Shown piece by piece: positions 3,033 to 37,687 of a DNA stretch of 64,000 nucleotides. The stretch's first letter is position 1. Each line of letters starts with the position of its first letter. The translations under genes were made by a program, and so were the position numbers. Source of the stretch: a virus. Taxonomy: Duplodnaviria > Caudoviricetes. The notes beneath the pieces are model-generated. The model was not told the origin of the DNA. It did no database searches and saw only the letters and a program-made list of their open reading frames with translations. Location of the stretch: the IMG/VR virus record IMGVR_UViG_3300008259_003073, one strand, 5' to 3'.

Positions 3033-3879
3033 AATTTTCTATTAATTTATTTACTACTTGAATTTGTGTGTAATTATGCAACACTTTCATCATTCCGTTA
3101 TGTGCAATTCTTTCCCTTTCCTCTTCGTTTTCATTGTAATAGTTCATCTTCTCTATACAATCGAACATCTCATCGTAATATACAATATCTTCCCCTTCTA
3201 CAAACATTTCAGATAAACCAGTTTCATCTGGCAACCTATCAGTTAATATCATCTTACCACACGCCATTCCTTCAAAGATTCTACGGGTAATTTCTTTCCA
3301 TCTACTATTCTGAATTACTATTAAACCAGTATTCAAAAATTCCGTATGTTCTTTAGGTCCTAATCCATTTCTATTACCAACTGCTCCCTCTGCCCAATTT
3401 GTAAGATAATCTAAAAATTGGGAATTTCCAAGTCCTCGTGTAGTTACTGCAACATATTGTGGTTCTAAATTCATTGGAAACTGAACTTTAGTATCTGCGA
3501 AATGATTTATCCATTCAGCATTTATACCTCTGTTTCTATATTCTTGTGCAGATTGTTTATCGGGTGTGATTGTGTAATGGAAACGATTTGCTTTAGGATA
3601 ATTTCTTTCAAAGTTTTGTGGGTCATCACCACTTTCTTGTATCCAAAATGCAGGAACTAAATCCTTATTAAGATATTGTGAATCAAATCTACCCCAATCC
3701 ATAAACAATACGATATCTGTTTGTGGTTTGGAATTTACCCAATTCTTTAAATCAGTATCATTTGTTTTGATTATTTGAGTTTCCCACCCTCTTTCTTTAA
3801 ATTCATTTACTAATGCCAATGGAGTAGACCATACTTCCCCATCTCTATAATCGTATATGAATGTTATTTTATTTTGCAT
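2992..3879 (-). CDS. Glycosyltransferase, CgeB/YkvP-like (GT-B C-terminal domain)
   Basis: RRIFEGMACGKMILTD, FVEGEDIVYY, ERERIAHNG pattern. Confidence 0.75.
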   Translation of the reverse strand: MQNKITFIYDYRDGEVWSTPLALVNEFKERGWETQIIKTNDTDLKNWVNSKPQTDIVLFMDWGRFDSQYLNKDLVPAFWIQESGDDPQNFERNYPKANRFHYTITPDKQSAQEYRNRGINAEWINHFADTKVQFPMNLEPQYVAVTTRGLGNSQFLDYLTNWAEGAVGNRNGLGPKEHTEFLNTGLIVIQNSRWKEITRRIFEGMACGKMILTDRLPDETGLSEMFVEGEDIVYYDEMFDCIEKMNYYNENEEERERIAHNGMMKVLHNYTQIQVVNKLIENYESFNNGSSGAIR

Positions 3880-4498
3880 ATTCTTCTCTTTTAAATAAAA
3901 CCTGATAATGATTAGTTACTTCTAAATTATATGGTGAATATGGTTTCCAATTTACACCATTTTGAATATAATCGGTTTCTGCTGAAAACCTGTTTGTATT
4001 TATATTTTTTACATCTATCGTTTTCGCGTAGTCCGCTTTCATCCACCAAAAGTTACCAGAATATATTGTCCATTTTCCAGCATTACCAAGTAAGACACCG
4101 TATGTATTAAAATCAGTTTTTTCAAATAATTTAAAAACATTTCTGGTTTTTTCTATATTAAAATAATTCATAAGATGTCTCCAAGATGCAACATTTGTGT
4201 TTCCTTGTTTGGATGCACCTTTAGTATGAAAATACAAAATATAATCCGAATCTGCAAATTTTTCTACATCTTTTTGTATTAATTCCAATGTAACAAATTC
4301 ATTACCTCTCGCTCTGACATCCCTTACATTTTTAAATTTAGTCAACAGATGGTATATTGATTTATTTTCTTCTGCAAGAGAAATCCCTATATTTAAAATA
4401 TAGGGAAAATCAAAATGTTTTTTTAATAAAGAAATCTGCTCTTCCACTATTGATTCTACCCCGTCTATTGCGTATATGTGATAATAGACGTGTACCAT
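3869..4498 (-). CDS. Hypothetical protein, putative glycosyltransferase-like
   Basis: 209-aa ORF coupled to both neighbours; YFHTKG and YSGNFWW motifs; function inferred from context only. Confidence 0.45.
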   Translation of the reverse strand: MVHVYYHIYAIDGVESIVEEQISLLKKHFDFPYILNIGISLAEENKSIYHLLTKFKNVRDVRARGNEFVTLELIQKDVEKFADSDYILYFHTKGASKQGNTNVASWRHLMNYFNIEKTRNVFKLFEKTDFNTYGVLLGNAGKWTIYSGNFWWMKADYAKTIDVKNINTNRFSAETDYIQNGVNWKPYSPYNLEVTNHYQVLFKREEYAK

Positions 4499-5124
4499 TA
4501 TAGTGTATCGTAATAATTGTTTTGTCTTTCTTGCCTATCAATTGTTTTTGGATGTATAATACAATACACTTCATCTGATGGGAAATTGGTGTATGATTGA
4601 AACCCAACAATTCTTTCATGTACTTTACCACTCCAACCAATTGTTTCTGGATTGTTTTTGTAGATACGAGTCTGAACATCTGGGAAGTTAACCCATCCTT
4701 TCTCATTAACATTCCATCCCCATTTTTGAATATGTGCTTCAGTTAATCCTTCGACTGTATTGATTCTCGGAACTACTATCAAATCCTTATCAGTATTAGC
4801 TTCTAATAGCTCTTCCAAATTATAGATTAAATCATTTGATAGGTACTCATCGGCATCTAATTGAAATATCCATTCACCTTTACAATGTGAATTTAAAAAG
4901 TTTTTCCATTGTGCAAAATCATTATCAAATTCAGATTCAATTAAAGTGATGTAATTTGCATTAGCTTGCAATTCTAAATACTCAATCATTTCCGTAGAAG
5001 ATTTTGGAGTATCTAAAAGGACTACTATTTCCGAATTTTCACCTTTATAGTTTATCAGTTGTGTAATTAACCTTATAATTTCTTCATGCTCATTACAAGC
5101 CGTTATTGCGTAACTTAATTTCAT
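4498..5124 (-). CDS. Glycosyltransferase family 2
   Basis: LSYAITA, EIVVLLD, DFAQWKN, WIFQLDADE (DXD), VPRIN, W-x-G-x-VHE. Confidence 0.85.
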   Translation of the reverse strand: MKLSYAITACNEHEEIIRLITQLINYKGENSEIVVLLDTPKSSTEMIEYLELQANANYITLIESEFDNDFAQWKNFLNSHCKGEWIFQLDADEYLSNDLIYNLEELLEANTDKDLIVVPRINTVEGLTEAHIQKWGWNVNEKGWVNFPDVQTRIYKNNPETIGWSGKVHERIVGFQSYTNFPSDEVYCIIHPKTIDRQERQNNYYDTL

Positions 5125-7335: not shown

Positions 7336-8718
7336 TTATAACTCTATTAACTTAAATTTTTTCTTTGGTTTCCAATTTTCAAATGCACCTTCCATACCAT
7401 CTGATAGTGTTTTACACATTGCTTCTCTGCTCAACAATCCATCACCTAACATCCACTTTCTTCCTTTTAATGCTGCTGCATCTCTATCTTCTTTTGGAGT
7501 TAAATACCATTCCATAATCAATGGTGATATATCTTCGAAATCAACCCTATCATCAAAAATATAAGGAGTAGGAACTGAACCCGTGGTTGAACGAACTGGC
7601 CAAATTGGTTTAACCCAATCTCCCCAAACTACACCTGCTTTTTTATGTCTATCATGTAATGAACCTATCTCTACATAATCTTCTGCGGTTAGTAATTTTC
7701 CAGTTGTAATATCTCTAAACCCACATTGGTCTTGCAATCCACCTGTTACCGTTACAATAATTGGAGTTCCTGCCATTACCGATTCTGCAGTTGCTAATCC
7801 AAATCCTTCGTTAGATGCTACGTTAATTGTTACATCTCCCAAATTATAAAGATAATTCAATTGTTCTTCTGTATATCGGTTTGGAGCGAATACTACATTT
7901 GTTTCAGATGAACAACACTCTGCTATAGTTCTCGGTAAATCCGTTCCATGCTCTTCAACTGGATTAGTGTGCATCAATAAACATACTTTACTTCTATGCT
8001 CTGGAGCTAATGCCTCCACAAATTTATCAAATGCAAGAATTACATCAATTGGTTGTTTTCTACGAATGTTTCTATTATTCCAATATAAAACAAAATCGTA
8101 TTCCTTTTCACCAAAGATTTCTTTTTTGAAATCAGCTGGTACTTCAACTGGCTTATACAAATCCGAATTGATACCATGCGGTACATAACTTACTTGCCAA
8201 TCAGCAGGTGGTGTCCAATGCTTTTCTTTATCCCATCCCCAAACTCTACGAGTAATCCCATAAGTTTGCTTTGAAATACATCCAATCCAATCACAACTTT
8301 CGTAATAATCTCTATTGTATTTTGGGTCTGGTAAATCATCCCAAATGTGATAAAAGAAAAGGGGAACTGATTGACGAATTTCATGTTCAATTTCATACAA
8401 CCAAATCCAATATCTAGGGTCAGTAAAGTGTAAGATAGCATCAGGCTTTTCTACCATCAATAATTGACGAATAATGCCTGGATTACCATAACCATCTGAT
8501 GGGTAAATTTTTACATTCGCATCTTTTACGCCAGTTTGTTCTCTAACACTTTCGTTTAAATCTAAAATCTTACCTGCTTCTGGATGTTTGATTGCTGCAC
8601 CTAATTGAACCCAATCATATTTATCAACCGTTCCCATAACTAATTGTTTGGAAACATTAGCTATACCACTCGACATTCGCAAGTCGTCCGATAATAATAA
8701 AATCTTCTTTTTTGCCAT
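7336..8718 (-). CDS. Glycosyltransferase family 4 (GT-B)
   Basis: SGIANVS, YVPHGI, NRNIRRKQ, NEGFGLATAESVMAGTPII. Confidence 0.9.
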   Translation of the reverse strand: MAKKKILLLSDDLRMSSGIANVSKQLVMGTVDKYDWVQLGAAIKHPEAGKILDLNESVREQTGVKDANVKIYPSDGYGNPGIIRQLLMVEKPDAILHFTDPRYWIWLYEIEHEIRQSVPLFFYHIWDDLPDPKYNRDYYESCDWIGCISKQTYGITRRVWGWDKEKHWTPPADWQVSYVPHGINSDLYKPVEVPADFKKEIFGEKEYDFVLYWNNRNIRRKQPIDVILAFDKFVEALAPEHRSKVCLLMHTNPVEEHGTDLPRTIAECCSSETNVVFAPNRYTEEQLNYLYNLGDVTINVASNEGFGLATAESVMAGTPIIVTVTGGLQDQCGFRDITTGKLLTAEDYVEIGSLHDRHKKAGVVWGDWVKPIWPVRSTTGSVPTPYIFDDRVDFEDISPLIMEWYLTPKEDRDAAALKGRKWMLGDGLLSREAMCKTLSDGMEGAFENWKPKKKFKLIEL

Positions 8719-8746
8719 AACTCTTTTTATAAATAATTATTGTTTT

Positions 8747-9613
8747 TTATATTTTTCCATCACAAATTCCTCTTTGTTTAAATTCACACCAATCACAAAG
8801 TTTTGATGGATATTTAGGATATTTTGAATCTACATTATATTCACCACTCTGGTCAAACACATTATTAACGAATTCAGTAAACCCTTTCCATGCCTTATTC
8901 ATAGATGGTTTACCACTAGCAGGTACGTGTCTACTGATACGAGGAATGTTATAATCTGTATTTTCGGATACCTTACGCTTTAAAATAATAAATTCTACAT
9001 CTATTATATCTTCTGATATGTTTAGTAATTCTGCGTAAAACTTTTTGTATAAAAGTAATTGAGTACTTTTAACCGAGTCTGCTTTTTGGGTTTTGGTCCA
9101 GCCTCTAGTTGAGGTTTTGAAATCCGTAATACGGTATCTACCCGTTGATTTACTTCTAACAATAAAGTCAATGAATCCTAAAAAGTTTACATTTTCTGCA
9201 ATTTTGGTATTGATTGGTTGCTCTATTGCAATCAACTCATCATCTTTTAATGAAAAAAAGTTGTTGAAATTTTTAGACTTCTGAAAGTAATCTAAAATAA
9301 GATTACCATCTTCTAAAAACTCAACTAACTCTTCTTTGGAACATATTGGATTTTGTCCTTCGTTTGATTCTTTTAAAAAGGATTCTCTCATTTTTTCTTT
9401 GAGAAACTCCTTTGTATTCATATTCTTATCTGCTTGCGATTTAGAAATACGCAAACATCTACTTAAATATTCTTGCAAAGTCTCATGCATTGCAGAACCA
9501 AATACGGTGTGGATGCTAGATGATGATTCTCTCAAACCATCTATGTAAGCCAGTTTGTATTGATGGGGACATGAAGACCACATACTGTATTGGGAAAACG
9601 AAACTCTTGCCAT
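8747..9613 (-). CDS. PD-(D/E)XK exonuclease, Cas4/RecB-like with probable Fe-S cluster
   Basis: SSCPHQY, GSAMHETL, GFIDFI, DFKTS, QLLLY, C-terminal CDWC...C. Confidence 0.88.
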   Translation of the reverse strand: MARVSFSQYSMWSSCPHQYKLAYIDGLRESSSSIHTVFGSAMHETLQEYLSRCLRISKSQADKNMNTKEFLKEKMRESFLKESNEGQNPICSKEELVEFLEDGNLILDYFQKSKNFNNFFSLKDDELIAIEQPINTKIAENVNFLGFIDFIVRSKSTGRYRITDFKTSTRGWTKTQKADSVKSTQLLLYKKFYAELLNISEDIIDVEFIILKRKVSENTDYNIPRISRHVPASGKPSMNKAWKGFTEFVNNVFDQSGEYNVDSKYPKYPSKLCDWCEFKQRGICDGKI

Positions 9614-10949: not shown

Positions 10950-11186
10950 TTATACTATTGATGGTGGGGTGTCTCTTAATTCCAAAGGTAATAACTCTTG
11001 CAATGCTTTTCCACACTGGGTACAAAGATACATTTCAATTGGAATGATTGAATCTTGTGCATTGCCAGTCATTATTTTACTTAATTTTTTAAATCTATAT
11101 CCTGGCATAAATGTTTTATTTCCACATTCACATACCATATCTCTCGCATCATTTAGGCTGACACCATTCGGTAATCCTTGTTCCAT
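10950..11186 (-). CDS. Small zinc-ribbon protein
   Basis: CECG...CTQCG, 78 aa, coupled to neighbours. Confidence 0.65.
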   Translation of the reverse strand: MEQGLPNGVSLNDARDMVCECGNKTFMPGYRFKKLSKIMTGNAQDSIIPIEMYLCTQCGKALQELLPLELRDTPPSIV

Positions 11187-12133
11187 TATTTTATAATATT
11201 TAAAATTTGAATAATTGTACTCATAAACACTATTTCTTTATCTACTACTAATGCATCTTTGGATAATCCTTCTGCAATAGTTAAGATTACATTGGCAGTA
11301 TTACCTGCTGCGTATTCATCAACTCTACTATATAACATAGAATACATTTCCGAATAATCGTTTAATCTATTATCAGCAACTGCTTGTCTGATATTCATAA
11401 ACATATTTCTCTTATCATCATTTGCTTTTAACAAATCTACCAATTTTGTTTGGAAATTAGATTCAACCATAATTTGATGGTCTACTTTCAACTCTCCTTT
11501 TGCAGATTGTAATTGGCAAGTATTTAAGATTCTACGAATATCAGGATAATATGAACTGATAATATCAGCAACATTCTTAACATCGTATTTGATTTTTTCA
11601 GCATCTAAAATTCTAGTAACCTGAATTGCAACATCTTTCTTTGTAGGTGGTGTGATTGCAAATGTTTGGCATCTACTTTTGATTGGGTCAATAATCTTTT
11701 CGTGATAGTTACACGTTAAGATAAATCTACAATGTTTAGAGAATGTCTCCATTAAGTTACGCAAGATTGCCTGTGCGTTTGGAGTCATATAATCAAACTC
11801 ATCCAAAATGATAATCTTAAATCCTGCAAATCCCATAGAGGATGCGAAGTTCTTCACCTTATTACGAACTGTATCTACGTTGTTCTCATCCGATGCGTTG
11901 ATAATCATACTATCACATTTGATTGTATTTACAATTAGTTTTGCAAGTGTGGTTTTACCAGTTCCTGCTTTACCATGTAATAACAAATGTGGAATATCAT
12001 TATTATCCAAATACTGCTGAATGGTTTCCTTTACGGTTTCATTACCTACATATTCGGAAAGTGTTTGTGGGCGGTATTTCTCCACCCACAAACTATGCTC
12101 TCTCTTACTAATATCGTTTTGAAAAAAGCTCAT
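11186..12133 (-). CDS. Clamp loader AAA+ subunit (gp44/RFC-like)
   Basis: WVEKYRP (RFC box II), GKAGTGKT, INASD, DEFD, SRC motif. Confidence 0.95.
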   Translation of the reverse strand: MSFFQNDISKREHSLWVEKYRPQTLSEYVGNETVKETIQQYLDNNDIPHLLLHGKAGTGKTTLAKLIVNTIKCDSMIINASDENNVDTVRNKVKNFASSMGFAGFKIIILDEFDYMTPNAQAILRNLMETFSKHCRFILTCNYHEKIIDPIKSRCQTFAITPPTKKDVAIQVTRILDAEKIKYDVKNVADIISSYYPDIRRILNTCQLQSAKGELKVDHQIMVESNFQTKLVDLLKANDDKRNMFMNIRQAVADNRLNDYSEMYSMLYSRVDEYAAGNTANVILTIAEGLSKDALVVDKEIVFMSTIIQILNIIK

Positions 12134-12138
12134 AATAA

Positions 12139-12444
12139 TTAGTTATTTTCTTTAGATTTTTCTCTCTCTAATTTTGATTCTTCCGAAATTGGTCTTGGGA
12201 AGATTGTGAACTGCATTCCATTTTGTTGAAAATTTAATCCTTGTCCTTCTATTGGTTGGATTCGTAATGTTAATGGTGATGGCTCTGAATTTTCATCTGA
12301 CCATGCAAACACTATAGGCTCATTATTAAAAAATTGAAAACACCATTCTACATCTGCGATTGGAGTTGCTTCAGATACACCAATAATATCTGCATCCTGA
12401 TTTTGTAATTTCTCTTCCGGAAATAATTCTAATTGCTTTTTCAT
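12139..12444 (-). CDS. Hypothetical protein
   Basis: 101-aa ORF on the coding strand filling the gap. Confidence 0.6.
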   Translation of the reverse strand: MKKQLELFPEEKLQNQDADIIGVSEATPIADVEWCFQFFNNEPIVFAWSDENSEPSPLTLRIQPIEGQGLNFQQNGMQFTIFPRPISEESKLEREKSKENN

Positions 12445-18153: not shown

Positions 18154-19305
18154 TTATGGTTTTTTCCATATCCATACTGGCTCACAAAATGTTTTGTTTT
18201 TTGCTTCTTCCGCTTTTAATAAAGCTTCTTCTGTATATCTTTCCTCATCCCCTTCTATAATTGCTCCTGCACCTGCTGAACCTGGTCTCTTTGCCATCTC
18301 CATCCCTAAACACCCTTCATAGATACCTCCCAATGATTTGATGTAATCGTTCATAGGGTTTGTTATTTCTTGGTATCCTTTACCATCCCCTTTGGAAGAT
18401 GCATATACATCTGCAATGTTAATTGCTAAATACCCACCCTTTCTAATAGTAGGCCAAACCTTTTCGATTGTTTTATGTAAGAATAATTTATTCCATGCAT
18501 CAATGTTGTTGTATCGAACCCAACTTTGGGTATCGTCATAAGAATATCGTTCAACATTGAAATATGGGGGTGAGCTGAAAACAATGTCAAAATAATCGGT
18601 GTACTCACTATAATCCATGTCTTCAGCTGGAATTGGGTGATTTTCTTTTCTCGGGTCAATACCCACATAATGTTCTCCTTTTTCAGATGCCATAAATCCA
18701 CACAATCTATCTCCCCATCCCGCCGATATGTCTAACACATTTTTTGCACCTACCATATCGTAAAGTGCTTTGGCAACATTGGGTTTGAATTGTGAGCAAA
18801 TGTACTTTCTTAAACTCAAACAAACTCGCAGTTCGTTTCTTCCTACTTCATCAAATTTAAGAGTGTATAACCCACCCATTAAAGACGTCATAAAATCCTT
18901 ACTTGCCCACGTTCTATGAGGACCTGGCGAAACGGTGCCGTCTACACTCCAACGATTTGCTTGTTGAAAGAAATTGGATGCAGAGTTACCAGTGTTTAAC
19001 CTTTTTACAAATTGCTTCTTACCTCTGAATGTTAAAGGATAATTACTTTCCGATGCTTTACGAGGAAACCACTCACCCTCTTTAAGTAGTTCGTTGTAAC
19101 GAGTTCCTTTGAGAGCAAGGTATTCCTTTCTAGCTTCGGTTTCTGTGATTTCGGCATACGGTAATTCGTATTCCATACACAATTGCGCAAGAGAGTCTTT
19201 TACATCATCTCTGTCAAAAGTGCTTTTAATATAACTCCACTCTTCACTATTGATGTGAAGGTATGGAGCCATATTTTTGAACTTGTTAAAGTATTCTATA
19301 TACAT
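18154..19305 (-). CDS. Second DNA amino-methyltransferase-like protein, apparently with an internal in-frame deletion
   Basis: LDISAGWGDR, GIDP, FSSPPYF, INIAD, EPVWIW; short spacing between GIDP and SPPY. Confidence 0.8.
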   Translation of the reverse strand: MYIEYFNKFKNMAPYLHINSEEWSYIKSTFDRDDVKDSLAQLCMEYELPYAEITETEARKEYLALKGTRYNELLKEGEWFPRKASESNYPLTFRGKKQFVKRLNTGNSASNFFQQANRWSVDGTVSPGPHRTWASKDFMTSLMGGLYTLKFDEVGRNELRVCLSLRKYICSQFKPNVAKALYDMVGAKNVLDISAGWGDRLCGFMASEKGEHYVGIDPRKENHPIPAEDMDYSEYTDYFDIVFSSPPYFNVERYSYDDTQSWVRYNNIDAWNKLFLHKTIEKVWPTIRKGGYLAINIADVYASSKGDGKGYQEITNPMNDYIKSLGGIYEGCLGMEMAKRPGSAGAGAIIEGDEERYTEEALLKAEEAKNKTFCEPVWIWKKP

Positions 19306-19315
19306 AACTTAATAA

Positions 19316-21586
19316 TTAATTATTCTGTAATTCCGTAACATAAGAATCTAAAACAACATTTCCACTTTTAAAAGAATAACTGCTATTATATTCAATTTCA
19401 AAATAAGAAAGTACAATTTTTAAATTTTCTCGTGCTTTCTTTGCGTTGTTGTAATCTTCTTCTTTTGCTTCATTATCGCTATCTTCAATGAATTCAATCT
19501 TTCTTTTATTTAGAGTATCATTGCAATTTGCAATCATTTCTTTCCAAAATAAGTCAAATGATTTTTGATTTAGTTTAAATTTATGTCTATTATCTTTATT
19601 AAACTCAAATATCCACATTTTATCACGAAGAACTCCACCATCCGAATCAGCTTCTAAATGCCCAACATCAAATTCTTCAACTTTACGAAGTATTCCATCA
19701 CGCGTATTAAAGATTTTAAAATTTGATAAATCGTTATTTTTTATTTCTTTTTTAAGAAAATTTAAAAATTTCAATCTTTCTTTTGAAGTAGTTGATGCAT
19801 CTATATATTCTAAATCTAAAACTGGTTTTACAACATCAATGAAAAATGTATCTATAACTGCATATATTTTTTCGATATTACCACCTTTAAAATGATATAA
19901 TGGACCAAATGTAGGCGTATCATTTCTATCATCTAAATCCGATGCTCTACATACATCTTTCCAATCATCAATATTATACTCAAATTTAAAAAATGATTTA
20001 GGTCCTTCATATAAATCAATTTCAAAATTCCAAACAAAATCTAACCACTTTTGAGTTGTAATTTCAATAACTCTATTAAGCACATCTGTAATATGTGTTT
20101 CGGATAGATTTTTGTTTTGTAATACAAAATCAATAGTATTTAATAATATTGGATAAAGTAATTCTTTTTGTTGTAATCTCAACTTATTAACAGTACCTAA
20201 ATTACCAGGTTTATCTATACCAATATTTTTAAGATATTCTCTAATTATTTCGGTTTCCTTTTGTAAATGAGTATTCCATAGTTGAATTATTTTCTCGTTA
20301 TTTAACCCAACATTTTTTTGTGAATTTTGAATTCTATTATATCCTAATGTAGCTTCAACCATATTAAAAACTTTTAGAAATTCGGATTCTAATTGCTTTA
20401 CATTTCGTTTGTTTCTTTCGGAATATTCAATATATTCGGCAACAGTCTCTTGAACTATTTTAGTTCCTTTATCAAACGGCCTAGCTAAACCATTATAAAA
20501 CCAATTTTGATAACGCTTTAAACCATAATCACTTTTAATATCCGCACCATTAATTTGAATTAAACATGATGTAAGAAAATGATAAATGTATCTATCATAT
20601 TCATTATATTCAGAACCATGAATATTATCATTAATTACTCTAAAAAATGGATTGTTTTTATCAGATTTTGCAAAACATGCGGATAAAATGGCTGGTTTAT
20701 GTACATCTCTTGGATTTTTACTATTATCATATACTACATTATCATGCCAAGCATCTTTTACCATAGTCATTGATAAATTCACATCCGATTGTCCGGCACC
20801 TCGTTTACCTTCTCTATGATACGATTCACTTTCACATCCATTACTTTTTCTTTCTAATATTACATTTGGTTTTAAATCAAGAATTGAATTAATTAATTTA
20901 AAATATCCATTCTCTTTTAACCAACTAACAGTTAAAAATTGATTTTTTGTAATTACAAAATCATCTTTAAAAGCACCTAATGCTAATTTTAAAAGATTTA
21001 ATAAATCTGAATTTTTACCGTTTTCCCATCTATTAGAATTTTTAATATATCTGTTTTCAACTTCATTAAATTCTCCTTTTTCATCAAGAACTTTCCATAC
21101 TTTTGAATCGGTAAAATAACTAAACCATCTCCATACTAATTGAAATTTACTTTCACCATCCCATATACCAACTAATTTAAATTCTCCATAAGTATCTGTA
21201 TTTATTTTTAAAGTTGGAATTGAACTGTGTGTAATCCAAGATATAAAACCATCACTAATACTATCGTAATCCCAAGTAGATGTTCCACAATCTTCGTTCT
21301 TATTAAGAGTTCTTATTACCGAAGATTTACCCCTTTGTCCTTTTGATGGTAAAAATATTGTTGTAGACATTACAGGTTTTACATTATACTGCACATCTCT
21401 AAAAGATATAGGTTCATAATGAAACAGTAAATCTCGATAGGTTAGTTCTTTCAATGTTCCCCACGTACTTGATGAGTTATTGAAGTTTTCTATTACATTT
21501 CTGATTTGTTCTTCTTTGGTGAGAACGATACCTGATAGATTAGCTCTGTCTAACAAAGCCTTATCAATTTTTTTTGAGTATCTCAT
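19316..21586 (-). CDS. DUF262 + HNH protein (GmrSD-like nuclease candidate)
   Basis: IWDGESKFQLVWRWF resembles DUF262 DGQQR; C-terminal DVGHLEADSDGG...NKDNRHK resembles an HNH. Confidence 0.55.
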   Translation of the reverse strand: MRYSKKIDKALLDRANLSGIVLTKEEQIRNVIENFNNSSSTWGTLKELTYRDLLFHYEPISFRDVQYNVKPVMSTTIFLPSKGQRGKSSVIRTLNKNEDCGTSTWDYDSISDGFISWITHSSIPTLKINTDTYGEFKLVGIWDGESKFQLVWRWFSYFTDSKVWKVLDEKGEFNEVENRYIKNSNRWENGKNSDLLNLLKLALGAFKDDFVITKNQFLTVSWLKENGYFKLINSILDLKPNVILERKSNGCESESYHREGKRGAGQSDVNLSMTMVKDAWHDNVVYDNSKNPRDVHKPAILSACFAKSDKNNPFFRVINDNIHGSEYNEYDRYIYHFLTSCLIQINGADIKSDYGLKRYQNWFYNGLARPFDKGTKIVQETVAEYIEYSERNKRNVKQLESEFLKVFNMVEATLGYNRIQNSQKNVGLNNEKIIQLWNTHLQKETEIIREYLKNIGIDKPGNLGTVNKLRLQQKELLYPILLNTIDFVLQNKNLSETHITDVLNRVIEITTQKWLDFVWNFEIDLYEGPKSFFKFEYNIDDWKDVCRASDLDDRNDTPTFGPLYHFKGGNIEKIYAVIDTFFIDVVKPVLDLEYIDASTTSKERLKFLNFLKKEIKNNDLSNFKIFNTRDGILRKVEEFDVGHLEADSDGGVLRDKMWIFEFNKDNRHKFKLNQKSFDLFWKEMIANCNDTLNKRKIEFIEDSDNEAKEEDYNNAKKARENLKIVLSYFEIEYNSSYSFKSGNVVLDSYVTELQNN

Positions 21587-21628: not shown

Positions 21629-21660
21629 CAAATATAAGAAAAGTATTTCGAAATATCAAG
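21629..21660 (-). promoter_or_regulatory. Putative Bacteroidota-type promoter
   Basis: CTTG-N20-TATATTTG upstream of the 21586 start. Confidence 0.65.
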
Positions 21661-21678: not shown

Positions 21679-22518
21679 TTAAGAAAAAATCCATCTTCCT
21701 CCAATGTTCCAAAATAGTATATCTCCATCTAATTTTTCAATGTTATCCGATAACCATTTCCACTGTTTAATATCCCAAAATTGATTGCAAGGAAATGGTG
21801 CTTCAAAATTATCTAACCTATCGTTAAATCCATACTCTGATTTTTCAATATGAACATTGGTTGGGTCATATACATTGTGTTGTACATACGTTCCTTTGAC
21901 CGTTCTGTAAGATGAAACACAAGTACTCCAAGCGTGTCTATCTGGTTTTTCCCAAAAGTTATTCCTTTGCCCTACGAATTTTTTAATCAATCCAGATGAT
22001 GTTACTCCCTCACCCGATGAAACTACTAAATGTTTAAAATCACCCTTTTCTTCCAAAACCCTTTCCATCTTTTTTTCCATGTAATCAACATAGAAACCAT
22101 CGTTGAATGCATAAGGTAATAACTGCCATTTTCCTACCGATGAATTTTTTAATTGAGCATACATTATATCCTGTATGTTGTTTTGAATAGGATTGAATAT
22201 CGTTTTGGGGTGTAGTGTTTTAACCTTTTCTATTAGGGCCTGGCTGATTACTTTATTGTCAGGATACGAATATATGAAGTCTATCCCTAACTCCTCACAT
22301 ATCGCAGCTAATGCCCAACCAGACCAACTTCCGTTTACTACCAAGTGGGTTAAAGGTTTTGACCTATCAACATACTTATCTACTAAATTATAGATTGCTT
22401 CAATTTTTCCCCAAGGTGGTAGTGATTCACCATCACCCATCAAATCATCTCGCTTAACCCAAACCTTTCTACCTTTCAATTCATACACCTCTAATGGTGT
22501 ATTTGTATTTAAAACCAT
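21679..22518 (-). CDS. PLP-dependent fold-type II enzyme (ACC deaminase/D-cysteine desulfhydrase-like)
   Basis: VWVKRDDL...WGK (candidate Schiff-base Lys), VVSSGEGVT phosphate loop, LFWNIG end. Confidence 0.75.
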   Translation of the reverse strand: MVLNTNTPLEVYELKGRKVWVKRDDLMGDGESLPPWGKIEAIYNLVDKYVDRSKPLTHLVVNGSWSGWALAAICEELGIDFIYSYPDNKVISQALIEKVKTLHPKTIFNPIQNNIQDIMYAQLKNSSVGKWQLLPYAFNDGFYVDYMEKKMERVLEEKGDFKHLVVSSGEGVTSSGLIKKFVGQRNNFWEKPDRHAWSTCVSSYRTVKGTYVQHNVYDPTNVHIEKSEYGFNDRLDNFEAPFPCNQFWDIKQWKWLSDNIEKLDGDILFWNIGGRWIFS

Positions 22519-25364: not shown

Positions 25365-27146
25365 TTATCCTTCACAACTTACACATTCTGGGTCCATTGC
25401 CTTTGCTGCAATATCACCTCTTAAAACTGATTCGGTTCTCATATAATATAATGTTTTTACTCCTTGTTTCCAAGCTTCCATATGAATTTGATTAATCCAC
25501 TTTGGTTCTGCGGTTGCAGGGAATGCCAAATTTAGGGAAACTGCTTGGTCGATATATTGTTGTCTAACACCTGCTTGTCTTACTAAATCTAATTGGTTGA
25601 TTTCTTTAAATGTTTTGAATACATCTTTAACTGAATTACATCTGTGTGCTCTTTCATCTATAGATACTTCTTTACATTCAAGTAACTTACCATCTGAAAA
25701 ACAGTAATCATCTAAAAAGTCCAAATCTTGTACTGAACCACCATCTGCTAAAATCTTATCCCATACCTCTTTGGTATTTTTTCCAATCTTACGAAGTACT
25801 CTTTCCAATTCAGGATTCTTTCTAATGAATGTACCCTTTGCAGTTTGTTCTGTAAACACATTTGCTGCCCAAGGTTCAATACCACTACTAACATTACCAC
25901 TCAATTTAGAGTTTGATACCGTAGGTGCTACTGCTCTCAAATGTGTATTTCTCATACCACTCTCTTTACACCATAGTGGTTCACCATATTCACTAGCTAA
26001 CCATCTACTTGCTCTTTCAGATTCAATCTTTAATTGAGAGAAAATCTTACGAGTTTCAAATTGAGCTTGTAAACCTTCAAATGGTAATCCTTTTTGTTGT
26101 AAGTAAGTGTGCCATCCCAATACACCTAATCCTAATGCTCTACCTCTTTCTGCTGAACGAACTGAATTCTCAAATCCTTTCATATTTTTAGCTCTTTGGA
26201 TAAATTCTTCCAACACACCATCTAAAAATATAGTAGAAGTATATATCAAATCGGTATCTTTCCACTCATCGTATTTAGCTAAATTCAGTGATGATAAACA
26301 GCAAACAAATGAATGTTGTTCATCGGTGTGTAGAACGATTTCAGAACAAATGTTGGTCATATGAACTTTCAATCCATTCTTTTTATACATTTCAGGATTT
26401 GCTTTGTTTACATTTCCCTTGTACATAATGTACGGTTCACCAGTTGCTTTTCTTTTCTGAAGTATCTTACCCCATTTTCTACGAGCTTCCGAATCACCTT
26501 CTTCTACCTTTCTCATAAACCTATCACTAACCACAACACATTGATGTAAGTTAAGTGATTGACGATTCACATCTCCCTTTGGTTCTCTGATTTCTAAAAA
26601 ATCTTCAAAATCCTTATGTTCTACTTTAATGTTTACCGATGCTGCTCCTCTACGAACTGAACCTTGATTTGTAGCAAGAATAGTTGAATCATAGATTTTA
26701 GCAAATGGTACAATACCATCGGATGTTCCGTTACCAGTAATTTTACTACCTGCTGGTCTAATCATATTGATACCAATACCAACACCACCACCATGCTTTG
26801 CCAACAACATCAATTCTAAATTTTTAGAACCAATTTCATAGATACTATCACCTACATCAATACCGAAACATGAGATTGGTAAACCTCTATCAGTACCAGT
26901 ATTTGATAATACAGGCGTTGCTAAACACAACCATCCTTTCCAAATGTAATCAAAGAACTTTGTTGCCAATTGTGGTTTCTCCAATCTTTTAGCAACTGCC
27001 GTAGCAACTCTCCAATATGCATCCTTTGGTTTTTCACCAGCTTGTAGGTAAGTTTTAGATATAGTTTTTACATATATCTCATTATTTCCCCAAGATGGGA
27101 AATCAACATCTACTTCCCATCCGTATTCTTCTCCGTAATTTCTCAT
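25365..27146 (-). CDS. nrdA: Class I ribonucleotide reductase alpha subunit (short, no ATP cone)
   Basis: ATPVLSN, ISCF, GGGVG, TNICSE, VAPTVSNS, KTLYY, C-terminal CVSC. Confidence 0.96.
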   Translation of the reverse strand: MRNYGEEYGWEVDVDFPSWGNNEIYVKTISKTYLQAGEKPKDAYWRVATAVAKRLEKPQLATKFFDYIWKGWLCLATPVLSNTGTDRGLPISCFGIDVGDSIYEIGSKNLELMLLAKHGGGVGIGINMIRPAGSKITGNGTSDGIVPFAKIYDSTILATNQGSVRRGAASVNIKVEHKDFEDFLEIREPKGDVNRQSLNLHQCVVVSDRFMRKVEEGDSEARRKWGKILQKRKATGEPYIMYKGNVNKANPEMYKKNGLKVHMTNICSEIVLHTDEQHSFVCCLSSLNLAKYDEWKDTDLIYTSTIFLDGVLEEFIQRAKNMKGFENSVRSAERGRALGLGVLGWHTYLQQKGLPFEGLQAQFETRKIFSQLKIESERASRWLASEYGEPLWCKESGMRNTHLRAVAPTVSNSKLSGNVSSGIEPWAANVFTEQTAKGTFIRKNPELERVLRKIGKNTKEVWDKILADGGSVQDLDFLDDYCFSDGKLLECKEVSIDERAHRCNSVKDVFKTFKEINQLDLVRQAGVRQQYIDQAVSLNLAFPATAEPKWINQIHMEAWKQGVKTLYYMRTESVLRGDIAAKAMDPECVSCEG

Positions 27147-33272: not shown

Positions 33273-33304
33273 CAAATATACAATATTTTTGTTACATTTC
33301 CAAG
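33273..33304 (-). promoter_or_regulatory. Putative Bacteroidota-type promoter
   Basis: CTTG-N20-TATATTTG upstream of the SSB gene. Confidence 0.65.
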
Positions 33305-37655: not shown

Positions 37656-37687
37656 CAAATATATAAAATTTATTTCAATAATCCAAG
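37656..37687 (-). promoter_or_regulatory. Putative Bacteroidota-type promoter
   Basis: CTTG-N20-TATATTTG directly upstream of the PolA-like start. Confidence 0.65.

Follow-up and report, generated by a model that had tools for sequence, protein, structure and literature searches.

Nucleases built on a DUF262 domain are known as weapons with which bacteria and prophages act against phages, and the prophage-borne GmrS/GmrD enzyme of CT596, which excludes T-even phages, is a precedent for conflict between phages. BrxU (7p9k), a type IV enzyme of the GmrSD family, carries the motif DGQQR together with a DUF1524 nuclease of the DHIYP type, and in the phosphorothioate-sensing nickases SspE (6jiv, 7drr) and DndI (9jfl) the DUF262 domain reads a self-mark and switches the nuclease on against unmarked DNA (PMC10952713). 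A DUF262/Cas9-type HNH protein has also been described in a T4-like cyanophage (PMC12284385). Here we report on an open reading frame (ORF) of 756 amino acids (aa), termed X, at positions 19316-21586 on the minus strand of a 64,000-nucleotide (nt) stretch of DNA, the window, from the virus record IMGVR_UViG_3300008259_003073. We lean towards reading X as an active DNA endonuclease regulated by nucleoside triphosphates (NTPs), of the DUF262 plus His-Me class to which GmrSD, BrxU and SspE belong, and as exchangeable cargo of a jumbo T4-like phage whose hosts are probably freshwater Bacteroidota. The predicted fold, the conservation of motifs, the evolutionary pattern, the variability of the genomic slot and the conservation of the promoter were all computed here. 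Whereas the known examples are bacterial or prophage-borne, the carrier in this case is a virulent-type jumbo phage, and its version is invisible to annotation.

X resembles BrxU in its N-terminal ParB/Srx-like DUF262 domain and in its overall plan, one polypeptide with an NTPase-type domain, a helical region and a C-terminal His-Me nuclease, in X as predicted. It differs in having DGESK and an FDxGH...E...N motif, in matching no Pfam family and in being about 170 residues longer, and it is found in a lytic-type jumbo phage whereas BrxU lies in a bacterial defence island. With SspE and DndI it shares the DUF262 domain (Z 5.7-5.9 over residues 37-263) and, by a weak match, the helical region (Z 4.3), yet there are no phosphorothioate genes nearby, the nuclease motif is another one and no sequence similarity is detectable. 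The likeness to GmrSD proteins (Eco94GmrSD; CT596 GmrS/GmrD) is one of architecture class, with neither a PF03235/PF07510 match nor a DGQQR or DHIYP motif in X. Viral DUF262+HNH and DUF262+GIY-YIG proteins, seen as clusters in the ESM Atlas, are likewise phage-encoded fusions of DUF262 to a small nuclease; they measure 380-480 aa and are recognised by Pfam, whereas X has some 750 aa, a long helical insert and no Pfam visibility.

Predicted fold and conserved residues of X

An exhaustive HMMER search returned 20 cluster representatives homologous to X, 16 of them at E<=1e-10, and a relative of 95% identity (on contig L005) sits on a 237-kb metagenome contig. Compared with this relative, X has a ratio of non-synonymous to synonymous rates (dN/dS) of 0.25 at a synonymous divergence (dS) of 0.107, where neighbouring genes have a dS of 0.05-0.16. 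Because about 20 clusters of homologues exist and dN/dS is 0.25, the ORF is more than a product of chance, and sequence comparison presents it as a real gene under purifying selection. It starts with ATG, encodes 756 aa followed by a stop, and is the most AT-rich gene locally: its GC content of 0.268, or 0.137 at third codon positions (GC3), lies below all nine neighbouring genes (0.30-0.38 and 0.19-0.32, respectively) in a window of 0.329 overall. Low GC was dropped as a sign of recent foreign origin, since the allele called B below has a flank-like GC content and the dS of X equals that of its flanks.

An AlphaFold2 (AF2) model of X built from 17 homologues, with identities down to 17%, reached a predicted local distance difference test (pLDDT) score of 87.3 and a predicted template-modelling (pTM) score of 0.83; with only 7 close homologues the model was unusable (pLDDT 50). 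The ESM Atlas' own model of X was set aside as poor, its structure matches being meaningless. Against the Atlas, all ten matches of our model were clusters of PF03235 (GmrSD_N), with a template-modelling (TM) score normalised by the hit of up to 0.71. Viral GmrSD_N+HNH and GmrSD_N+GIY-YIG clusters were also present, and matches 3, 4, 9 and 10 were the best whole-length neighbours; in match 3, a GmrSD_N+HNH cluster, 396 residues aligned over residues 38-674 of X (TM by hit 0.66). Matches among the AFDB clusters were named DUF262, GmrSD_N or HNH (E 2e-4 to 5e-2), and those named HNH aligned up to about residues 668-672. Viral DUF262 proteins matched the model in BFVD, and among Swiss-Prot structures MJ0686 was the sole standout, the matches from these two libraries likewise being DUF262/GmrSD/HNH proteins within the E range 2e-4 to 5e-2. 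Foldseek found nothing in the PDB at E<=0.001, with weak matches only to SspE, DndI and BrxU. VIA-align against the PDB placed BrxU 7p9k on residues 43-264 of the model (Z 5.9, root-mean-square deviation (rmsd) 5.5, 147-152 residues aligned), SspE 6jiv on residues 37-262 (Z 5.9, rmsd 3.7, 135 aligned) and the ParB-like proteins PadC (Z 5.1) and KorB (Z 4.2) on residues 37-268. The ParB/Srx-like fold of the GmrSD/DUF262 N-terminal domain is thus found in the predicted model.

From the VIA-align and Atlas matches we assign a ParB/Srx-like DUF262 (GmrSD_N-like), predicted NTP-binding domain to residues 37-265 (20792..21478; this and all other features of X are on the minus strand). Within it, LPSKGQRGK (residues 79-87, 21326..21352) is the counterpart of the DUF262 motif IPxYQRxY, with R85 invariant, and a third element, E252-x3-Y-x-x-E/x-G...Q...L (residues 252-271, 20774..20833), with E252 invariant, is the counterpart of IFE.IN.RG..L...DL. 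Between them lies the counterpart of (I/V)-D-G-Q-Q-R, the nucleotide-pocket motif of DUF262 (PMC10952713). DGQQR as such is not found in X, which has IWDGESKFQ instead (residues 141-149, 21140..21166), so that QQ is replaced by (E/x)S and the arginine by an invariant lysine; D143 and K147 are invariant and G144 nearly so, being Cys in one homologue. Residues 101-250 (20837..21286) form a variable stretch, a candidate specificity region. A helical middle domain follows at residues 266-600 (19787..20791), as judged by the secondary structure of the model, with weak matches to the C-terminal region of SspE (Z 4.3) and to DndI (Z 4.3), and the protein ends in a modelled two-helix hairpin and tail (residues 672-756, 19319..19573).

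The putative active site precedes this hairpin. Conservation and the model together delimit a beta-beta-alpha His-Me/HNH-like motif, FDVGH-x5-GG-x10-E-x4-N-R-H, at residues 639-671 (19574..19672), which in the family takes the form (F/M)D(I/V)GH-x5-6-G(G/N)-x10-E-x4-N. The model shows a strand at 639-642 ending at H643, a second strand at 659-662 and a helix at 663-669 that holds N666, so H643 would be the putative general base and N666 a putative metal ligand. As modelled, the C terminus has a beta-beta-alpha-metal arrangement that is HNH-like rather than of the DHIYP type that marks DUF1524 nucleases (PMC10952713), and structural neighbours of X carry PF01844/PF13395. Across all 17 homologues R85, T104, W105, D143, K147, E252, Y327, F581, G642, H643, G650 and E661 are invariant, while S81, K87, G144, Y256, Q266, L271, N666 and K675 are nearly so; the catalytic-type residues are thus kept over identities of 17-95%. 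It is this fold, together with the conserved residues, that leads us to the reading of X as an active, NTP-regulated DUF262-His-Me nuclease. An earlier, sequence-only reading of the window had pointed to the 756-aa ORF, its visible AT-richness, DGESK in the place of DGQQR and an HNH-like motif at the C terminus, and each of these was found here.

Divergent alleles and unrelated genes at one site

P2/P4-type prophages and satellites have hotspots of defence-gene cargo. The site of X is like these hotspots in that unrelated nuclease/NTPase genes are swapped between near-identical backbones at a fixed, promoter-proximal position; it is unlike them in that a large virulent-type phage harbours it within its replication operon, and in that a conserved SPPY methyltransferase-like gene comes next in all occupied contexts seen. 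We define the slot as the interval from the end of the pyridoxal-phosphate (PLP)-fold gene (21679..22518, minus strand, 279 aa), whose 3' end is its left border, to the start of the methyltransferase-like gene or of PolB, and its census covers about a dozen long contigs.

X evolves differently from the genes around it. Between the window and L005 it has accumulated 47.5 non-synonymous differences, where its neighbours have 0-7 at equal dS, and its dN/dS of 0.25 compares with 0.00-0.09 in nine neighbours; 21 of the 40 amino-acid differences fall within residues 101-250. Over larger distances the pattern changes from pair to pair. Compared with L012, L001 or L014, X is 31% identical while the flanks are 77-84% identical (78-82% for L012); compared with L011 the values are 57% and 59-63%; and between L011 and L007 X is 31% identical and the PLP-fold gene 74%. 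At least five alleles can be told apart, namely A (window, L005, L011), B (L001, L012-14), C (L007-9), D (L010) and a 783-aa form (L068), about 25-35% identical to one another and all retaining the catalytic-type residues. The tree of X conflicts with that of the backbone, and the alignments indicate that very divergent alleles are swapped at one site.

The slot may also hold something else or nothing. Homologues of the PLP-fold gene number 386 and greatly outnumber those of X, and in L062-L064 this gene is followed directly by the B-family DNA polymerase gene (PolB), leaving the slot empty. In L065 the slot (7907-9586) encodes a 559-aa protein grouped by the Atlas with viral HATPase_c_3 clusters (score 0.97); in L066 (6928-8553) it encodes a 541-aa protein with weak N-terminal HNH matches and a ResIII/superfamily 2 (SF2) helicase core (ResIII 26.8 bits, cut-off 22.5); in L067 (6928-8505) an unrelated 525-aa protein without a recognised family; in L068 the 783-aa homologue of X (E 5e-243 against the family hidden Markov model, HMM); and in one further contig a 442-aa protein with a faint HNH_4 match. 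The backbones of the contigs with alternative occupants are 85-97% identical to X-bearing contigs or to each other. Replacement is best seen between L065 and L068, whose DNA is 96.8% identical along 6 kb that end 5 nt beyond the PLP-fold gene, shares nothing across the slot, and becomes similar again, at 85.7%, from the methyltransferase-like gene onwards; L066 and L067 show the same pattern. Each of the three backbone clades contains close relatives whose slots hold different contents. An apparent tie between occupancy and the 2-hydroxyacid dehydrogenase gene was dropped when L066 and L067 were found occupied without that gene.

The AsnB-like gene, the PLP-fold gene and both methyltransferase-like genes are kept in relatives whose slot is empty or filled by a non-homologous gene. 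The sequence-only reading had suggested that X could pair with the adjacent modification genes like a restriction-modification unit; a fixed unit of nuclease and modification genes finds no support in these phages, which have other genes or nothing at the position of X. Since the pathway genes persist without it, X is not a required step of the putative modification pathway; it is probably exchangeable cargo that does not belong to the adjacent DNA-modification genes as a fixed member. Because the contents of the slot are exchanged and the identifiable alternatives are also NTPase/nuclease proteins, we regard this cargo as accessory and as serving in conflict.

Promoter, proposed action and alternatives

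A Bacteroidota-type -33/-7 promoter, TTG-N20-TATATTTG, lies at 21629..21659 on the minus strand, 42 nt upstream of the ATG of X, where the letters from 21659 to 21629 read TTGATATTTCGAAATACTTTTCTTATATTTG. It fits the Bacteroidetes consensus TTTG/TAnnTTTG (PMC2483708). Taken alone, the octamer TATATTTG does not clearly exceed the chance expectation in the window (16 found, 9.75 +/- 3.3 expected), and two more intergenic copies of TTG-N20-TATATTTG, at 33273-33303 and 37656-37686 (minus strand), which precede minus-strand ORFs by 99 and 6 nt, are candidate promoters of the same host-type class. Directly after the PLP-fold gene, TTG-N19-20-TATATTTG occurs in every relative examined, whatever gene comes next: it precedes X alleles in L001, L005, L011, L012 and L014, the unrelated 559-aa protein in L065, and PolB itself in L063 and L064, and L062 carries TATCTTTG at this position. 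The string CTTG-N20-TATATTTG that the sequence-only reading had noticed is therefore present (21629-21660), but it is not dedicated to X: because it is conserved behind the PLP-fold gene even without X, its distribution marks it as a backbone promoter of the downstream operon. The SPPY methyltransferase-fold gene starts 10 nt after X, and the two are probably co-transcribed. Contigs from an estuary metatranscriptome match 20628-21360 of X without one difference and cover neighbouring genes too, but being contigs they say nothing on transcription, strand or start, DNA carry-over is possible, and they are not counted as evidence.

The NTPase and nuclease activity of X, its target, its self-protection and its transcription are what we infer, as follows. 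With a conserved host-type promoter in front of it, X would be the leading gene of a transcript that also covers the SPPY methyltransferase-like gene, the clamp gene and PolB. Its ParB/Srx-like N-terminal domain would bind an NTP through R85, D143/G144/K147 and E252, and NTP binding or hydrolysis may switch the enzyme, as in BrxU and SspE. The fast-evolving stretch 100-250 may read DNA or its modification state, and the C-terminal beta-beta-alpha site (H643, E661, N666) would cut or nick DNA, while the phage's own DNA would be spared either through modification by the neighbouring genes or because it lacks the mark that X attacks. Because related phages swap X for divergent alleles or for other NTPase/nuclease proteins, we suggest that X would serve as an accessory weapon, aimed at host DNA or at rival phages in the same cell, rather than as a step of DNA modification. 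An arrangement like restriction-modification (R-M) is still conceivable, given that DUF262 enzymes, as SspE illustrates, can also recognise their own DNA by a self-mark and leave it intact (PMC10952713). In a wider proposal, which we put forward tentatively and consider rather doubtful, freshwater Bacteroidota jumbo phages would keep a promoter-proximal "weapon slot" in their replication operon, a modular R-M-like system in which the SPPY methyltransferase-fold protein is the fixed "M" and the swappable "R" (at least five ultra-divergent DUF262-HNH alleles, the HNH-SF2 helicase or the GHKL-type ATPase protein) destroys host or rival DNA that lacks the phage's mark. If X is active, large lytic phages would keep exchangeable restriction-like weapons in the replication operon, possibly coupled to the marking of their own DNA, and X would represent a new, very divergent branch (DGxSK, GH...E...N) of DUF262-His-Me enzymes, of interest as modification-reading nucleases.

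Several observations weigh against an active nuclease of this kind. Sequence searches do not place X with it: no Pfam family was matched at E<=1 by X or any of the 17 homologues, no HNH or PF07510 match came from isolated C-terminal pieces, PHROGs and PADLOC gave no match for X, and single and profile queries found none among PDB sequences. We assembled 30 bona fide PF03235 proteins from Bacteroidia genomes and compared 21 of them with X by hhalign, taking X both as a whole and cut into three; no significant match resulted (P 0.23-0.48). The alignment was nevertheless collinear, with LPSkGQRgK on IPxYQRxY, STW on the next W, IWDGESK on VIDGQQR and E..Y.REG..G..Q..V.L on IFE.IN.RG..L...DL, a line-up used for illustration only. 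All fold evidence comes from one predicted model, the VIA-align Z values (5.9) are middling on their own and draw their weight from the agreement between libraries, and the HNH call combines that model with a motif. With Lys in the place of the DGQQR Arg, the NTP chemistry of X may differ or be absent. A dN/dS below 1 is no proof of an arms race, and the phages with X are all of a single lineage whose members universally have the methyltransferase-like genes, which makes the co-occurrence of these genes with X uninformative on function. Beyond these points, a tblastn search of 50,697 phage records was without a match, scans of IMG/VR and GTDB genomes found no relative of X, and a profile word search added no homologue to those already known. 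In sum, the fold reading of X is supported while membership in GmrSD by sequence fails: there is no PF03235 (GmrSD_N) or DUF1524 (PF07510) profile match, no PADLOC match, an hhalign P of about 0.2, and neither DGQQR nor a DHIYP-type motif. What survives of the earlier claim of DUF262 plus HNH is thus the predicted structure, from AlphaFold and structure searches, and the layout of motifs, not the sequence-level membership.

The main rival to a weapon is a selfish, free-standing homing-type endonuclease like the seg/mob genes of T-even phages, which would cut genomes with another allele or an empty slot and be copied in by recombinational repair. This would account for the place of X between conserved genes, its AT-richness (GC3 0.137) and the replacement of alleles; it also agrees with the HNH-type motif, with presence/absence and allele polymorphism at a single site, with clean breakpoints at gene borders between near-identical backbones, and with a weak PADLOC match of the HNH part of the L066 occupant to "homing endonuclease" (E 0.008). 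We nevertheless consider it unlikely. X has about 750 aa and a conserved NTPase-like domain, whereas known free-standing homing endonucleases are several times smaller; the HATPase_c_3 protein and the SF2 helicase fusion are not homing-endonuclease types; in the closest pair the synonymous divergence of X equals that of its flanks; and every member of backbone clade I seen has kept its X allele.

Less probable still is that X does not cut at all and is a ParB-like DNA-binding or NTP-switch protein, acting for example in genome organisation or regulation, with an HNH-like motif that is structural only. The ParB-family proteins PadC and KorB are indeed among its structural matches, DGQQR is altered to DGESK and HNH profiles are silent, but the 17 homologues, very divergent as they are, have all or nearly all retained G642, H643, E661 and N666, which the model puts in a beta-beta-alpha context, the structures that match X over its whole length are nuclease fusions, and nuclease or NTPase domains recur among the other proteins found in the slot.

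Least of all do we favour X as an integral part of a hypermodification pathway formed by the flanking AsnB-like, 2-hydroxyacid dehydrogenase, PLP-fold and SPPY methyltransferase-fold genes, be it through a DNA-binding/NTP-using step or by supplying a fixed R-M unit with its obligatory "R": X does always lie between the PLP-fold and SPPY methyltransferase-like genes, its distant L010 homologue adjoins an AsnB-like gene, and the reading of a self-modification by DUF262 proteins has precedents in SspE and DndI (PMC10952713), but the AsnB-like, PLP-fold and both methyltransferase-like genes outlast X as described above, its non-synonymous rate is 5-20 times that of its neighbours, and the apparent link to the dehydrogenase broke down with more sampling. 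The putative hypermodification genes should accordingly be analysed without X as a required member.

Neighbouring genes and their variation

X lies in a replication and nucleotide-metabolism block of a T4-like phage, with the gene order ribonucleotide reductase (RNR), thioredoxin, AsnB-like amidotransferase, 2-hydroxyacid dehydrogenase, PLP-fold protein, X, SPPY methyltransferase-fold protein, PCNA-like clamp, second SPPY methyltransferase-fold protein and PolB. The carrier is probably a jumbo T4-like phage of a freshwater Bacteroidota host group. By PolB the closest named phage is Microcystis phage Mel-JY01 (49%), in which thioredoxin stands almost directly before PolB and the whole cassette is lacking.

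The SPPY methyltransferase-fold gene downstream of X (18154..19305, minus strand) encodes 383 aa in the window, with an in-frame deletion of 26 aa between GWGDR (motif I-like) and SSPPYF (motif IV-like); its relatives all have 409-410 aa, one being otherwise identical in protein sequence, and the window copy may be inactive, altered or an assembly variant. In L012 a third SPPY/N6_N4_Mtase-like paralogue (11131-12363, 410 aa) separates the first methyltransferase-like gene from the clamp gene, two genes that in the window are 58 nt apart. Cassettes of backbone clade III (L062:6805-7503, L066:3805-4503 and relatives) carry a 232-aa thymidylate-synthase-like gene (weak PF00303) and no 2-hydroxyacid dehydrogenase, and in L062-L064 the first methyltransferase-like gene, instead of following the slot, is found upstream of the AsnB-like gene. 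Modularity extends to the putative modification cassette itself.

Copies of the large RNR subunit (window 25365-27146, minus strand) that are 73-78% identical occur on contigs L018-L025 in metagenome-assembled genomes (MAGs) labelled Flavobacteriaceae, Thiothrix and Acidimicrobiaceae. G002, the sole such MAG contig with a PolB match, has a PolB that is only 31% identical. These contigs, which have no X, PLP-fold or methyltransferase-like gene, were set aside as saying nothing about X in close relatives, and their sequences look like mis-binned other phages that share the RNR horizontally.

The most distant homologue of X with flanking sequence (L010:507-3095, 862 aa, about 26% identity) is followed directly by an AsnB-like gene (3106-4701, 46-50% identity). 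It is preceded by a sigma-70-like TTGACA-N17-TATATT instead of the Bacteroidota-type box, which may point to a different host group.

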